From positions 128,001-192,000 of the forward strand of contig OZ223300.1 in NCBI GenBank assembly GCA_965140705.1: a stretch of 64,000 bases of DNA. Reading direction: 5' to 3'. The notes under the pieces were generated by a model. It was not told the origin of the DNA. It ran no database searches and saw only the letters and a program-made list of their open reading frames with translations. This stretch comes from an uncultured Arcobacter sp. GTDB lineage: Bacteria; Campylobacterota; Campylobacteria; Campylobacterales; Arcobacteraceae. Of this stretch, positions 40,582-50,535 are shown piece by piece; position 1 is the stretch's first letter, and each line of letters opens with the position of its first letter. A program made the translations under genes and the position numbers.

Positions 40582-40692
40582 CTCCTTTTAAAATGTCCCA
40601 TTTTTAAAGGGACCTATCTTTAATAAATTCTTTTAACAGGATTTATAAAAAATCCTTAAAGAATCAAATCCTAAAGGGCGAAAGAATTCGCC
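40582..40692 (-). repeat. nif intergenic three-hairpin RNA motif, copy A
   Basis: GGCGAA-TTCT-TTCGCC CTTTAG ... ATTCTTTAAGGATTT-N5-AAATCCTGTTAAAAGAAT ... GTCCC-TTTAAAAAT-GGGAC ATTTTAAAAGGAG. Confidence 0.8.
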
Positions 40693-40720
40693 AACATATA
40701 ACTTTATATTTAGTACTTTT

Positions 40721-41635
40721 TTAAGCTTCTTCTGCTTTTTTACCTAAGTTTTCTTCGTCTACTTCTTCTTCTAATCCAAATTCCATTAATAGATTTTCTA
40801 AGTCATCCATTTCTAATGGTTCAGGAATAACTTTTAAGTCATTAGCGATGATTTTTCTAGCTAATTCTTTATATTCCATAGCTTGGTCAGATGATGGAGC
40901 GAATTCAACAACTGTCATTCTTCTTAACTCAGCTCTTTGAACGTGGTTAGATCTTGGTACGAAGTGAATCATTTGAGTACCAATTTGCATTGCTAAGTGT
41001 TTAGCAAGGTCATACTCTTTATCTGTCATTCTCGCATTACAAATTAAACCAGCAAGTCTAACTCCACCAGTATTTGCATATTTTAAAATCCCTTTAGAAA
41101 TGTTATTAGCTGCATACATAGCCATCATTTCTCCAGACATTACTATATAAATCTCTTGAGCTTTACCTTCTCTAATAGGCATAGCAAATCCACCACAAAC
41201 AACATCTCCAAGAACGTCATAAGATACGAAATCTAATTCATCATCATAAGCACCTTCTTCTTCTAAGAAGTTAATTGCTGTAATAACACCTCTACCTGCA
41301 CATCCAACACCTGGCTCTGGACCACCTGATTCTGTACAATTGATATATCCTTCTGTAATATCTGTATTATCTGGGTGAAATTCTGCTGCACCTGGTTTAC
41401 ATACATCTTCTAATTCTAAATCTTCAACTGTTCCAGCTTCACTAGCTAGTTGCATAATTGTTGATTGTGCTTTTTCATGTAATATAAGTCTAGTTGAATC
41501 TGCTTTTGGATCACATCCAACGATTAATATTTTTTTACCATAGTAGTGACACATTGCTGCTAATGTGTTTTGAGATGTAGTTGATTTACCAATCCCACCT
41601 TTTCCATAAAACGCTATTTGTCTTAAATCTGACAT
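40721..41635 (-). CDS. nifH: Nitrogenase iron protein
   Basis: [40 protein letters not shown]. Confidence 0.98.
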
Positions 41636-41675
41636 TCTGTCTCCTTTTAATATTATTAATTACAAAATAGATAAT

Positions 41676-41691
41676 TGCATATAGCGTTCCA
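41676..41691 (-). promoter_or_regulatory. sigma54 promoter (nifH)
   Basis: TGGAACGCTATATGCA. Confidence 0.9.
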
Positions 41692-41916
41692 CAAGATAAA
41701 AAAATAGTAAATTTTTTTTGTAATTTTTTTTAAAGTCCATAAAATAGGGATTTTGGAGAAGATTTTTTTTAAAAGAGATAAAAATAGGATAAAATATATC
41801 TTATTTTCATTATTGTTTTTATACTACATTTTTTGTAAAATTTGTTGTTTTGAATTGTAAATATTAAGAAAATCAACCAAAGGTTGATTTAAAAAAAGTG
41901 CTTAGAATAAGTAGAT

Positions 41917-42564
41917 TTAGAATTGTTTACAAAATTCTTTACTGTATTTTGCTTCTCCAATGAAAACTAATACATCGTTTTCTTTTACTTTATAAGAGGA
42001 GTCTATATTTAAAACCCAAGTACCATCTGATTTGTAAGATACTATTTTGAGTTTTTTATATTCTTCTTTTATTTCATAAATTCTTCTATTGATAAAGTTT
42101 TCATTTGCTACTAGTTTTATGACTTTTATATTATTACTTACATCTATCTCTTCCATTGTCATATTATCAATAAGTTTATTTACTAACATTCTTCCTGCTA
42201 TTTTTTCAGGATAGATAATTTTAAAGGCTCCAATTTTTGATAAGATCTCACCATGAGTTGATGTAATAGCTTTTGCAATAATATTTTGATTATTTAAATC
42301 TTTTAGTGCCATTACTGTTAAAATACTTGCTTCAATATTCTCACCAATACTAACAATAACCGTATCAAGATTATAAATTCCCACATCTTCTAGGGCTTGT
42401 TTATTTGTACTATCAAGAACAAAAGCATTATCAATATATTCGCTTATCTCTTGAATTCTTTTTTCATCATTATCTACTGCTATTACTTTTACATCTAATC
42501 TTGATAAACTTTTTACAATATAAGATCCAAATTTTCCTAATCCAATAACTGCGATTGTTTTCAT
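41917..42564 (-). CDS. ktrA: Ktr/Trk K+ uptake RCK subunit
   Basis: IGLGKFG, VSIGENIEAS, IIYPEK. Confidence 0.85.
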   Translation of the reverse strand: MKTIAVIGLGKFGSYIVKSLSRLDVKVIAVDNDEKRIQEISEYIDNAFVLDSTNKQALEDVGIYNLDTVIVSIGENIEASILTVMALKDLNNQNIIAKAITSTHGEILSKIGAFKIIYPEKIAGRMLVNKLIDNMTMEEIDVSNNIKVIKLVANENFINRRIYEIKEEYKKLKIVSYKSDGTWVLNIDSSYKVKENDVLVFIGEAKYSKEFCKQF

Positions 42565-49215: not shown

Positions 49216-49256
49216 TTTTCAATCTTCTTTACTTTTATCAGACGAATCTACTTTTT

Positions 49257-49598
49257 TTATTTTAATATATATGGTTTTACTAAAATATCACCTTTGATTA
49301 ACATCATTGGTGCAATTCTAACTTTTGGGCTGATTGTAAATTGTTGACATTGTAAAGCTTCATCAGAAGTGATTGCTCCCAATTTAACTAATACATCTAA
49401 CTCTTCATCTTCCATATAACTTGTAGGTTCTTCATCTGCAAGATTTTCAACATAGATTAAACTTTTTGCATAATCTTTCGTATCAGATACAAGAGGAACA
49501 CCTTTCTCTTTAGCCAATCTAACAATTGGTTCACCGATTTTTGCATCATAAATACCATCAGTAACAGTATCAAAATGCATAAAAATAACTTTTGCCAT
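49257..49598 (-). CDS. FeSII/Shethna-II-like ferredoxin-fold protein without cluster cysteines
   Basis: Length and helix insertion (EELDVLVKLGAI) resemble FeSII; the CxxxxCxxC and RLAC positions read SDTKDYAKS and RIAP. Confidence 0.55.
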   Translation of the reverse strand: MAKVIFMHFDTVTDGIYDAKIGEPIVRLAKEKGVPLVSDTKDYAKSLIYVENLADEEPTSYMEDEELDVLVKLGAITSDEALQCQQFTISPKVRIAPMMLIKGDILVKPYILK

Positions 49599-49689
49599 AT
49601 TTTGTCTCCTTTTTTAGCTTGTTTTCTTCATACAAACCAAGCCATATGATAAAGTTCTAAAAACTCTTTCATCTGACTTGGTTAATAAT

Positions 49690-50088
49690 TTAATCTTTTG
49701 AATAGTATTTTTCTCTATGTTTCCTCATAAATTCTAACTCTTCTTCTACTTCATCCCTATAATCTTCCATTGCTTCTAGTTCATGTTCTCTACACCCTAC
49801 TATTTCAACTGGAACATCCAAAAGACCTAAAAAGTGAACTTCATATACTCGAATTACTTGTAAAAAATCACCCATAGATTTGATATATCCAATCGCACCT
49901 GCTGGCATTAGTTGTGCTCCAATTGGTGCATGGGGATAGGTTCCATCATTGACTATCTCTTTTAGAAGTTTAACTTTTTGACCTATTCCAAACTTTGGTT
50001 TGTCTTCATCTTTTCCTGAACGACCTGCTGTTACACTATCATGAAGAGGTGTGTTAGCATCTACGATATCTTTATGATCAACACCCAC
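49690..50088 (-). CDS. nifZ: NifZ
   Basis: PKFGIGQKV, NDGTYP, GDFLQ..VYEVHF, VGCREHEL. Confidence 0.88.
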   Translation of the reverse strand: MGVDHKDIVDANTPLHDSVTAGRSGKDEDKPKFGIGQKVKLLKEIVNDGTYPHAPIGAQLMPAGAIGYIKSMGDFLQVIRVYEVHFLGLLDVPVEIVGCREHELEAMEDYRDEVEEELEFMRKHREKYYSKD

Positions 50089-50413
50089 AACTTCCTCCTG
50101 CTCCTGTTGGACTTGGACTACAAGAAGAACAACCTTCTAATTTCCCAGTCTCATACATATTCCAAACATCTGCAGCACTTGGTGAGTGTCCATTTTTATA
50201 ATCACCATAAACTCTCAACAGAGAAAATTTCAAAAATTCTAAAAGTTTATTTTCTTCAGTAATTGAAGATAAACCTTTTTTTATAAGTGTTCCATACTCT
50301 TTCATCATATGAAATCTTTTTACATTGATTAGTTTTTGGTCAAAATCTATATCAAAAAATTTAAAAAAATCTTCTGTATCTCTCAATTTATAAAACTCTT
50401 CTATTGTTTTCAT
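50078..50413 (-). CDS. nifW: NifW
   Basis: EDFFKFFDIDFD, NVKRFHMMK; start moved to MKTIEEF behind AAGGA. Confidence 0.8.
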   Translation of the reverse strand: MKTIEEFYKLRDTEDFFKFFDIDFDQKLINVKRFHMMKEYGTLIKKGLSSITEENKLLEFLKFSLLRVYGDYKNGHSPSAADVWNMYETGKLEGCSSCSPSPTGAGGSCGC

Positions 50414-50419
50414 TTTATA

Positions 50420-50535
50420 TCCTTTAAAATGTCCCATTTTAAAGGGACCTTATTTTATTTTTCATCTACTTTTTAACAGGATTTGTGAAAAATCCTTAAA
50501 AGTAGCAAAAACTAAAGGGTTTTAAGAATAAAACC
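50420..50535 (-). repeat. nif intergenic three-hairpin RNA motif, copy C
   Basis: GGTTTTA-TTCT-TAAAACC CTTTAG ... CTACTTTTAAGGATTT-N5-AAATCCTGTTAAAAAGTAG ... GTCCC-TTTAAAAT-GGGAC ATTTTAAAGGA. Confidence 0.8.

Follow-up and report, generated by a model that had tools for sequence, protein, structure and literature searches.

A dispersed intercistronic RNA element of Arcobacteraceae with a putative two-state Shine-Dalgarno hairpin

Introduction

Structured intergenic repeats are common in bacteria, and their use to the host is mostly unclear. According to the sections of Delihas (2011, PMC3184786) that deal with them, the Neisseria REP2 and Borrelia IR-A/IR-B repeats are dispersed intergenic sequences of 120-150 bp present in some tens of copies, and REP2 carries a promoter, an RBS and an ATG within the repeat, together with two stem-loops. 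The element considered here resembles them, as portrayed there, in its lack of terminal inverted repeats, its predicted internal RNA stem-loops and its position immediately upstream of an ORF and adjoining the RBS. Unlike REP2 in that account, it comprises three hairpins, has neither a consistent promoter-like site nor an ATG of its own, is intercistronic from the stop codon on, leaves the Shine-Dalgarno sequence (SD) on the gene side and contains a covarying two-state SD hairpin; this is a comparison of descriptions, not of sequences, for an element found in only one family of the Campylobacterota. The relevant part of the same source treats ERIC, Correia/NEMIS and RUP as MITE-type repeats that fold in mRNA (PMC3184786). 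Like the element, these have units of 100-150 bp; they are often co-transcribed with the flanking genes, as is probably true of the element, but they show terminal inverted repeats, target-site duplications and either orientation, none of which was seen here (for the duplication, at the one site compared). ERIC and Correia repeats can affect mRNA processing and expression.

The REP/BIME and REPIN-RAYT sequences are also transcribed, hairpin-forming intergenic repeats inside operons, sometimes clustered, and REP hairpins stabilise upstream mRNA segments. However, REPs are imperfect palindromes of ~35 nt that occur in both orientations and are tied to a Y1 (RAYT) transposase, whereas the unit of the element is 111 bp, with three distinct hairpins, a single orientation and no Y1 link. 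With the ROSE and fourU thermometers and with riboswitch platforms, the element shares a U-rich strand that pairs with the SD, and exclusive helices that decide on SD access. It departs from all of these in having no Rfam match, in preceding unrelated housekeeping genes, in reaching 27 copies per genome, in its small predicted temperature effect and in a sensing domain that is at most putative. Finally, the HRC-4 candidate motif of Arcobacter sp. L is characterized, in the part of Stav et al. (2019, PMC6429828) devoted to it, as a three-stem junction in a 1.5-kb intergenic region with 14 examples. As in that description, the element is an unnamed structured motif of Arcobacter and environmental sequences only, with no consistent gene context; judged by the HRC-4 description only, it differs in its three consecutive hairpins, gaps of ~130 nt and hundreds of examples. 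The HRC-4 candidate excepted, a literature search on Arcobacter, Aliarcobacter and Arcobacteraceae found no earlier description of the element.

Three copies in the nif region

The DNA analyzed here, termed the window, is a stretch of 64,000 nucleotides from an uncultured Arcobacter sp. A first-pass annotation had proposed that three of its intergenic regions, all inside nif operons, share a three-hairpin RNA architecture on the sense strand. These look-alike regions are real: copies A, B and C all lie on the mRNA (minus) strand with the same anatomy, in the order P1, CUUUAGnnUUUG, P2, P3 and SD (Table 1), and the common architecture was borne out by shuffles, folds and covariance-model scores. 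The window holds three exact sites and one 1-mismatch site of CCCTTTAGNNTTTG against 0.50 expected (0/100 shuffles reach four), and a search with TGGGACANTTTAAA recovers the same three sites. Single-strand folds gave z = -2.91 (A), -3.39 (B) and -2.56 (C, where the folded stretch ended short of P3). Because MAFFT aligned the copies out of structural register, a covariance model was built from copy A alone; after copies B and C, its next-best match in the window scored 17.1 bits. The family covariance model, with filters off, returned exactly copies A, B and C within the window.

Table 1. Coordinates of the three copies and their parts in the window.
Feature	Position	Strand	Evidence or remark
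Copy A, whole module	40573..40693	-	copy-A covariance model 158.4 bits; family model 137.6 bits
Copy A, P1 hairpin GGCGAA UUCU UUCGCC	40677..40692	-	P1 pairs covary family-wide (helices 1-2)
Copy A, single-stranded linker J1/2 CUUUAGGAUUU	40666..40676	-	conserved; unpaired
Copy A, P2, two-tier hairpin with internal loop and 5-nt apical loop	40626..40665	-	fold; covariation (helices 3-4)
Copy A, P3 hairpin (GUCCC, 9-nt loop, GGGAC)	40595..40613	-	SD stays free; fold, covariation (helix 5)
Copy A, alternative hairpin P3'	40584..40610	-	12 nt, 92% complementary (inverted-repeat scan)
Copy A, SD AAGGAG (40582-40587) and start codon of the 119-aa ORF (40573-40575)	40573..40587	-	
Copy B, whole module	49056..49216	-	copy-A model 72.7 bits; family model 97.5 bits; fold
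Copy B, P1	49198-49215	-	
Copy B, J1/2	49186-49197	-	
Copy B, P2	49148-49185	-	
Copy B, P3	49077-49134	-	
Copy B, ATG	49056-49058	-	
Copy C, whole module	50411..50535	-	copy-A model 71.7 bits; family model 90.8 bits
Copy C, P1	50518-50535	-	
Copy C, J1/2	50506-50517	-	
Copy C, P2	50466-50505	-	
Copy C, P3	50431-50448	-	
Copy C, SD	50420-50424	-	
Copy C, ATG	50411-50413	-	

The individual parts agree with what had been reported for them in nearly every respect. The P1 stems GGCGAA/UUCGCC, GGAACAA/UUGUUCC and GGUUUUA/UAAAACC enclose UUCU or UUCG; CUUUAG and a 6-nt linker ending in UUUG are present 3' of P1 in all three copies; P3, of the form (G/A)UCCC...GGGAC, lies 7 nt ahead of the SD in each; and the self-paired insertion described in P3 of copy B is found, its loop measuring 48 nt against 8-9 nt elsewhere, with a nested hairpin of ~39 nt inside. 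As for P2, the two-tier stem and the 5-nt loop stand, but the AGGA/UCCU core is not kept across the family at large. In copy A, the basal G·U pair of P2 is formed by the closing G at 40665.

Copy A is flanked by nifH (40721-41635) and a conserved 119-aa ORF (40216-40575), which precedes nifD; this ORF matched neither a Pfam nor an NCBIfam family, and the protein atlas gave nothing usable for it. Copy B lies between a 113-aa ORF (49257-49598) and a 2Fe-2S ferredoxin (48762-49058; Fer2 domain), and copy C between a flavodoxin (50541-51056) and nifW (family hits flavodoxin and NifW). The start of nifW is the ATG at 50413-50411, downstream of the SD, and not the in-frame ATG at 50437, which sits within P3; one gene start is corrected in this way. 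The element is probably transcribed within the operon mRNA; among metatranscriptome contigs at 80% likeness none spans 40659-40709, and such contigs cannot show ends, levels or absence.

A reading of the conserved boxes as sigma-54 or sigma-70 promoters was rejected, since the GG/GC spacing misfits by eye and a sigma-70-like scan, which covers Campylobacterota-type promoters poorly, found no consistent sense-strand promoter at the three copies; it gave 50 promoter-like sites in the region against 63.9 expected. The Rfam 15 search of the whole window at gathering thresholds returned no match, and that of 40000-51000 at E <= 10 gave chance-level hits only, the best over an element being Phe_leader with 26.2 bits against a threshold of 55, in line with the earlier statement that no named family could be recognized.

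Distribution and placement of the family

The covariance-model search of this genome yielded 12 full copies (E <= 4.1e-7) and two partial ones. The first-pass annotation had taken the element for a motif of nif operons, a reading that is not supported, because 9 of the 12 copies lie outside the nif region, before unrelated genes; nif clusters are copy-rich, with 3 of the 12. Copies were found in 89 of 150 other Arcobacteraceae genomes (family as given by the record titles) and in 16 of the 22 genera sampled (G000 counted), and in none of 144 genomes that represent 12 further families of the phylum. A smaller sample gave 18 positives among 24 same-family genomes and 0 among 16 from other families of the order. 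The number per genome ranges from 0 to 27. The element is specific to one bacterial family, Arcobacteraceae, with several hundred instances, and is a ready candidate for a new Rfam family. A loose pattern scan of genome contigs returned mostly chance hits in unrelated phyla, 23 of 80 loci passing the model.

The context was examined for 112 higher-scoring copies against roughly 460 hits overall; 100 of them belong to the 162 matches of the smaller sample, from which about 50 weaker ones were left out. Of the 112, 106 run up to the start codon of an ORF on the same strand that is 45 aa or longer, and for at least 101 a same-strand ORF ends no more than 300 nt upstream. The stop-to-P1 distance has a median of 15 nt (<= 50 nt in 84/101), and P1 lies within 10 nt of the stop codon or overlaps it in 42/101. 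The distance of P3 is 16-23 nt to the start codon and 7-9 nt to the SD, which is present in 106/106. The genes downstream are unrelated, for example hypA, rubredoxin, sufC, fabG, tal, folA, mnmA, pgk, ackA and ispH, and the 106 proteins comprise nif, hydrogenase maturation, Fe-S assembly, glycolysis, fatty-acid, folate, isoprenoid, tRNA-modification and other functions. No regulatory logic is evident among them, as no function is common to them.

Covariation and the conserved linker

In the family alignment, 97.4% of 2805 cells of the model pairs are paired versus 71.6% in shuffles (0/500 reach the observed value) and 41-72% in slid controls, and 22 of the 26 pairs show two-sided change; the alignment was fitted to the P1/P2/P3 model and the copies are related, not independent, so the shuffle controls overstate the significance. 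Within P2 (helices 3-4) the change is two-sided in 13 of 15 pairs. The cells hold 141 G·U or U·G against 10 A·C or C·A (65 against 10 once the near-invariant G·U pair is set aside), an excess that points to RNA of the sense strand. Covariation and placement thus support the earlier proposal of a sense-strand RNA structure with compensatory change and a fixed position and orientation before the SD.

The strongest sequence conservation of the element falls in the unpaired linker, where CUUUAG and UUU are at least 94% identical over 111 distinct copies. The P1 loops include stable-looking tetraloops (UUCG, CUCG, CUUG), and the joiner between P2 and P3 is A-rich and variable. Two readings of these parts were rejected. 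The fold of copy A pairs CUUUAG with the A-rich joiner, but the mutual-information scan does not recover this helix, and the joiner is variable; the GGA of the linker and the AGGA of P2, as CsrA-type sites, are not kept by eye across the G000 copies (consensus linker AGgn).

These features could belong to an element of mRNA processing or segmental stability. An endonuclease would cut the linker (CUUUAG/UUUG) or P2, the P1 hairpin would protect the 3' end of the upstream fragment, the downstream fragment would begin with a hairpin and neighbours such as nifH and nifDK would get different half-lives, the SD switch being secondary. P1 directly past the stop codon, its tetraloops, a conservation that peaks in an unpaired linker as a recognition site would show, and the frequency of copies behind highly expressed genes such as nifH all agree with this. 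However, the covariation of the loop-to-SD helix described below is left unexplained, no U-tract follows P1, and a simple scan calls no sense-strand terminator at copies A, B and C. We regard the processing role as unlikely; it could hold alongside the preferred explanation and does not exclude it. The missing U-tract and terminator calls also led to the rejection of P1 as an intrinsic terminator.

The alternative hairpin P3'

The loop of P3 also covaries with the stretch before the SD, and the resulting hairpin, mutually exclusive with P3, is predicted to be near-isoenergetic with it and to sequester the SD. In copy A, P3' would join CC and the P3 loop to the linker and AAGG of the SD, excluding P3. 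The loop-tail covariation is new here, beyond the earlier observation; the alternative SD-sequestering helix does not appear in the first-pass annotation. A copy's own loop and tail pair at 85.9%, compared with 66.8% (sd 1.1, maximum 69.8) in 200 chimera shuffles, and in an alignment not fitted to the alternative helix 88.1% of 1167 cells pair versus 73.0 +/- 0.8; since loop and tail are A/U-rich, the background complementarity is already 67-73%. In the unfitted alignment 11 of 11 pairs of this helix change on both sides, against slid controls of 33-69%, and per-pair swaps include UA:23/AU:22. An unbiased mutual-information scan ranks the loop-tail pair 177-242 first among non-model pairs. The mean dG, like all energies here a prediction, comes to -6.8 kcal/mol for P3 and to -7.13 for the alternative, whose chimeric version averages -4.24. 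At 5, 37 and 55 C the predicted ddG of the alternative versus P3 is -1.95, -0.33 and +0.44 kcal/mol, respectively; the alternative gains on P3 at low temperature, with a balance shift of only ~1.6 kcal/mol between 5 and 37 C.

Two exclusive, near-isoenergetic SD states, both supported by covariation, would also suit a signal-responsive riboregulator (riboswitch, RNA thermometer or protein-controlled switch), in which P1, J1/2 and P2 would sense a ligand, a protein or temperature, bias P3 versus the SD helix and co-regulate all genes behind the module. The layout resembles an aptamer with an expression platform, conservation extends to the unpaired linker and loops, which for the linker is compatible with ligand binding without proving it, and the alternative helix is predicted to be favoured over P3 at low temperature. 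Such a role is nevertheless very doubtful. The 106 downstream proteins form no coherent regulon, the mutual-information scan found no covariation tying the P3 region to P1, J1/2 or P2, temperature is predicted to have a small effect, Rfam holds no matching riboswitch or thermometer model, and four-unit tandem arrays and polymorphic presence, reported below, are unusual for riboswitches.

Repeat-like dynamics and age

TRF detected a tandem array of four 111-bp units with 94% matches, and overlapping pairs were seen by coordinates, two in the smaller genome sample and one in the larger. The internal tandem units end ahead of any SD or ATG; having neither SD nor gene, they have no obvious translational role. 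In addition, the site before nifD is filled in G001, G002 and G007 and empty in G000, and in environmental relatives nifH and the 119-aa ORF are joined by 23 or 87 other letters with no element, the 23-letter joint being weak because one side of it measures only 26 letters. Some orthologous sites can dispense with the element. Similarity between filled and empty sites resumes at the SD, so the SD is on the gene side of the boundary; in the one pair compared, between the 119-aa ORF and nifD, the spacer from stop to SD is wholly different and no duplicated flank is visible. Decay is piecemeal, with P3-only remnants and copies without P2 or P3.

For 47 of the 112 copies the nearest relative lies at the orthologous locus of another genome, and the median identity is 0.76 at the same locus versus 0.60 among within-genome paralogs; no recent bursts except the tandem units were seen in this comparison. 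A scan of copy A and one tandem unit found no terminal inverted repeats, only internal hairpin arms. The Y1 transposase PF01797 occurs in 10 of the 19 genomes that carry the element and in 2 of the 6 same-family genomes that lack it; the transposase is absent from genomes with 19, 15, 9, 6 and 4 copies, and one is present in each of two zero-copy genomes. An IS200/RAYT origin was rejected, as there is no association with Y1 transposases.

The first-pass annotation had weighed a genome-wide mobile repeat in random orientation as a contrary case, of which the genome-wide spread, tandem units and polymorphic sites were found, but the orientation is non-random (106/112 sense, abutting the start codon). 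One could still suppose a selfish or neutral dispersed repeat like REP, MITE or REP2 with no host function, which would spread by copying, survive only where harmless, that is sense and intergenic, and keep its structure because misfolded variants would trap the SD. The variable copy number, tandem arrays, filled and empty sites within one genus, heterogeneous downstream genes and piecemeal module decay accord with such a repeat. Against it stand the lack of terminal inverted repeats, of a clean target-site duplication at the one site compared, of a Y1 (IS200/RAYT) association and of recent bursts apart from the tandem units. Moreover, the paralogs are old (median identity 0.60) and yet 97% paired, which means long-term purifying selection on two folds and an unpaired 12-nt motif, more than harmlessness needs. 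We consider a functionless repeat distinctly improbable.

Discussion

The explanation that we prefer, with a probability of roughly 0.55, is a selected, portable intercistronic RNA module of ~110 nt with a two-state SD hairpin, acting in cis on the mRNA. Sites that do without the element, tandem units with neither SD nor gene and the lack of a common downstream function weigh against it. The module fills the gap between two probably co-transcribed genes, P1 starting a few bases past the upstream stop, followed by the single-stranded linker CUUUAGnnUUUG, the two-tier P2, the A-rich joiner, P3 and the downstream SD. In one state P3 (GUCCC/GGGAC) would form and leave the SD free; the other would pair the final two C's of its 5' arm, together with the P3 loop, with the linker and AAGG, in an A/U-rich hairpin of 10-12 bp that would bury the SD. 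Since the predicted stabilities of the two states are about the same, the module would set or adjust the frequency of ribosome initiation at the downstream cistron; it would also shield that start site from the upstream reading frame. Both states probably form in vivo and may change translation, and P1, J1/2 and P2 might, at a guess, provide a scaffold for folding or a site where a protein or RNase docks.

A bolder extension, tentative and on balance unlikely, is that P1, the invariant CUUUAGnnUUUG linker and P2 are a common receptor for one trans-acting factor that would flip P3/P3', so that 10-25 unrelated intercistronic genes per genome, nif prominent among them, would be switched together in translation. 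If true, the candidate factor would be a protein, RNase, small RNA or small molecule, the riboregulator would be of a kind not yet described, and the regulon would be rewired by insertion or deletion of cassettes between genes.

With its deep divergence, two covarying exclusive folds and a conserved single-stranded motif, the element offers an unusually clean and directly testable case of a repeat as a translational switch. For the nif genes of Arcobacteraceae, a post-transcriptional control is suggested, in which the device found at housekeeping genes would also set how much nifH, the small conserved ORF behind it, the ferredoxin and nifW yield relative to one another.

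Three copies in the nif region

The genes in this part of the window are encoded on the minus strand, and on that strand, which is the mRNA strand, the three-hairpin architecture that the first-pass annotation had described for three intergenic regions is indeed common to all of them (copies A, B and C in the table). P1 is a perfect hairpin of 6-7 bp, and no two of the copies share its stem sequence. Next come CUUUAG, a 6-nt linker ending in UUUG, and P2, a two-tier hairpin with a 5-nt loop. P3, (G/A)UCCC...GGGAC, is followed by the Shine-Dalgarno sequence (SD) and the start codon; in copy B its loop comprises 48 nt, within which a nested hairpin is found. 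The signature CCCTTTAGNNTTTG has three exact occurrences in 64 kb, where 0.5 would be expected with one mismatch allowed. No Rfam family matched the three regions, in agreement with the annotation, which had recognized no named family.

Location of the features (window coordinates unless a fetched locus is named)
Feature	Location	Strand	Context
Copy A	40573-40693	minus	between nifH and 119-aa ORF
Copy B	49056-49216	minus	between 113-aa ORF and 2Fe-2S ferredoxin
Copy C	50411-50535	minus	between flavodoxin and nifW
nifW start region	50411-50437	minus	called ATG 50437; likely ATG 50413
119-aa ORF	40216-40575	minus	between nifH and nifD
Hairpin at empty site	40188-40227	minus	119-aa ORF-nifD gap
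Stretch replaced in element-less contigs	40588-40716/40720		nifH-119-aa ORF joint
P3-loop insertion, ferredoxin copy	49086-49126	minus	
P3-loop insertion, fabG copy	L078 804-963	minus	
Regulatory and transport genes	41917-47321	minus	dividing two nif blocks
Three-gene set	52256-54457	minus	between nifN and nifX
Tandem array of G019	L045 985-1426		between two co-oriented genes
Copy on Paceibacteria contig	L180 384-503		5-kb contig

The mechanical ORF call for nifW begins at an in-frame ATG inside P3, and the SD-preceded ATG, giving 111 aa rather than 119 aa, is the likely start. The 119-aa ORF matched no Pfam or NCBIfam family and had no protein-atlas match; it occurs with equal length and place, preceded by the element, in this genome and six fetched genomes, one of which belongs to another genus. 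Unusually for a nif operon, the genes between nifN and nifX encode a 415-aa SagB-type dehydrogenase-domain protein, a protein with ankyrin repeats and a peroxiredoxin-like one. The stretch dividing the two nif blocks holds trkA/trkH, genes for a KdpE-like response regulator, a histidine kinase and a PAS-domain chemoreceptor, and rpoN (sigma-54).

Copies in this genome and in the family

Since the stems were out of register in MAFFT alignments of the copies, a covariance model was built from copy A alone, with its P1, P2 and P3 as the structure. Copies B and C score 72.7 and 71.7 bits, and the next-best match in the window 17.1 bits. Across the whole genome 12 copies were found at E <= 2.5e-4; with a family model the same 12 were recovered at E <= 4.1e-7 along with two partial ones, and with filters off it returned exactly three copies in the window. 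A nif-specific reading of the motif is not supported: nine of the 12 copies lie outside the window, before hypA, fabG, sufC, a membrane protein, rubredoxin, a DUF779 protein, folA, transaldolase and mnmA. The P3-SD part alone is present at two further loci.

At 1-27 copies per genome, matches to the model were obtained in 18 of 24 genomes of the same family, whereas 16 genomes from other families of the order gave none. In a larger sample at E <= 1e-6, 89 of 150 family genomes were matched, representing 16 of 22 genera when the genome of the window is counted; copies per genome are lower bounds in this sample (23 candidates per genome scored). Elsewhere in the phylum, no match was obtained in 144 genomes representing 12 families, with Arcobacteraceae run alongside at 5/6. 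A loose pattern scan of named genomes gave 80 loci with DNA, of which the model accepted 23 and none of the chance matches from other phyla. The accepted loci are titled Arcobacter, Halarcobacter, Arcobacteraceae or Campylobacterota, except for one on a 5-kb contig of a Candidatus Paceibacteria MAG. This clear copy scores 96.3 bits, and the contig is probably a mis-binned one from Arcobacteraceae.

Placement between genes

For further analysis 112 copies were aligned to the model, 12 from this genome and 100 higher-scoring ones from 162 matches in relatives, leaving aside about 50 weaker matches and two tandem partners. In 106 of the 112, the copy ends exactly where a same-strand ORF of 45 aa or more has its start codon; the other six comprise four internal units of tandem arrays and two degenerate copies. 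A same-strand ORF ends no more than 300 nt upstream in at least 101 copies, a lower bound because some loci are too short; the median gap between its stop codon and P1 is 15 nt, and 84 of the 101 gaps are no longer than 50 nt. The start codon follows P3 by 16-23 nt, and all cases have an SD-like tetramer (106/106). Note that the model contains the SD and ATG of copy A, which could favour matches placed at starts. Internal tandem units with neither reach 72-83 bits, far above the threshold, so the resulting bias in placement is small.

Selection on the sense-strand structure

Compensatory change in the stems, claimed earlier from the three copies, is evident in the larger set. Among 111 distinct rows, standard pairs occupy 97.4% of 2805 cells, compared with 71.6% in shuffles (0 of 500 reach this value), and 22 of 26 pairs are changed on both sides, in 755 cells; slid-partner controls give just 41-72% pairing. 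Because the copies are related and their alignment was fitted to the model, these controls overstate significance, yet the excess is very large. There are 141 G·U/U·G pairs vs 10 A·C/C·A (65 vs 10 once the near-invariant basal G·U in P2 is set aside), as expected if the folding strand is mRNA-sense. Sequence conservation falls mostly on unpaired positions, with at least 94% identity at the CUUUAG and UUU stretches of the linker, at two U's in the P2 loop and at one A in the P2 internal loop. Taken together, the data show a sense-strand RNA structure under long-term selection, spanning the interval between stop codon and SD. That P1, the linker and P2 serve primarily in processing or stability is a possible though rather improbable reading; it is compatible with a cis-acting module for initiation, and both roles may coexist.

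Two alternative folds at the SD

Side-by-side comparison of the copies shows that variation in the P3 loop is matched by variation in the segment separating P3 from the SD. That segment, together with AAGG of the SD, can pair with the loop and the final two C's of the 5' arm, forming an alternative helix, P3', whose apical loop is GGGAC and which cannot coexist with P3. In 94 unique modules (duplicates, three insertion-bearing copies and one P3-less copy were dropped), loop and own tail pair at 85.9%, compared with 66.8% for chimeric tails (sd 1.1, maximum 69.8, 200 shuffles). For 89 of these (five with unequal arms dropped), the mean predicted dG is -6.8 kcal/mol for P3, -7.13 for the alternative and only -4.24 for the chimeric alternative, and the alternative is the more stable predicted fold in 45. 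Single P3' pairs swap freely in the 53 modules with 9-nt loops (UA:23/AU:22, UA:21/AU:19). On the alignment fitted to P1, P2 and P3 and not to P3', 88.1% of 1167 cells pair, compared with 73.0 +/- 0.8 in shuffles (0/500 reach this); 11 of 11 pairs are altered on both sides, as in 8 of 500 shuffles, in 142 cells vs 51.2 +/- 4.8, and slid-partner controls pair at 33-69%. An unbiased mutual-information scan over all columns recovered the model helices, placed a loop-tail pair at the top of the remainder and revealed no other long-range partner. The data show two covariation-supported folds at the 3' end, one of which is predicted to sequester the SD.

Such an architecture would fit a signal-responsive switch. 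However, no regulon is seen and nothing indicates that the 5' domain is coupled to P3, and we consider a switch improbable, the least likely of the readings discussed here. The balance is predicted to shift just mildly with temperature: the predicted energy of the alternative less that of P3 is -1.95 (5 C), -0.33 (37 C) and +0.44 kcal/mol (55 C).

Repeat-like behaviour and age

A relative's genome, G019, carries four tandem 111-bp units (94% matches); internal units stop before any SD, and the last is followed by SD and ATG. Alternate units are 97% alike, giving a 223-bp super-period. Three more overlapping pairs were judged from coordinates. The 119-aa ORF-nifD gap contains a copy in three relatives (G001, G002 and G007) and only a 28-nt spacer in the genome of the window; similarity restarts at the SD, and this one compared site shows no target duplication. 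The empty site has a small hairpin across the stop codon and then a U-rich run, scored terminator-like by a scan, where congeners have the full element. At the nifH-119-aa ORF joint, metatranscriptome contigs of environmental relatives have 87 or 23 other letters instead of the element, and similarity again restarts at the SD; anchoring is good for the 87-letter joint (150 letters on the shorter side) and weak for the 23-letter one (26 letters). Two unrelated nested hairpins of ~40 nt occur in P3 loops, in the ferredoxin copy (this genome and G003) and in a fabG copy of G004, suggesting that secondary insertions are tolerated by this loop or attracted to it.

Of the 112 copies, 47 have their nearest relative at the orthologous locus in another genome, 49 before a different gene in another genome (genome sampling being incomplete) and 16 within the same genome, the last including 4 tandem units. 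Same-locus pairs have a median identity of 0.76, compared with 0.60 for within-genome paralogs. The copies are old despite their repeat-like dynamics.

No terminal inverted repeats were found, and Y1 transposase genes do not track the element across genomes. Judged by Y1 association, unit size and orientation, it does not belong with REP/RAYT elements, nor, judged by terminal repeats, with MITEs. The nearest described repeats, compared by description, appear to be Neisseria REP2 and Borrelia IR, which, as reviewed by Delihas (2011; PMC3184786), lack terminal inverted repeats, have internal stem-loops and lie directly upstream of ORFs with an RBS. In contrast to these as so described, the present element is intercistronic, has no detectable promoter or ATG of its own, has three hairpins and carries a predicted bistable SD helix. 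No prior description was found in the literature on Arcobacter/Arcobacteraceae intergenic repeats and RNA motifs. HRC-4, as listed by Stav et al. (2019; PMC6429828), is an Arcobacter-confined candidate with a three-stem junction, 14 examples and no gene context; compared by its text description, it may overlap with the present family.

A purely selfish repeat would account for the copy-number dynamics. However, on that reading it is not easy to see why pairing stays at 97% when identity is 60%, why an unpaired motif is conserved and why two alternative folds are under selection; we regard a purely selfish repeat as unlikely, somewhat more so than a primary processing or stability role. Our preferred reading, with a probability of roughly 0.55, is that the element may be a module acting in cis inside operon mRNAs, which would determine or adjust initiation at the downstream cistron and insulate its start site.
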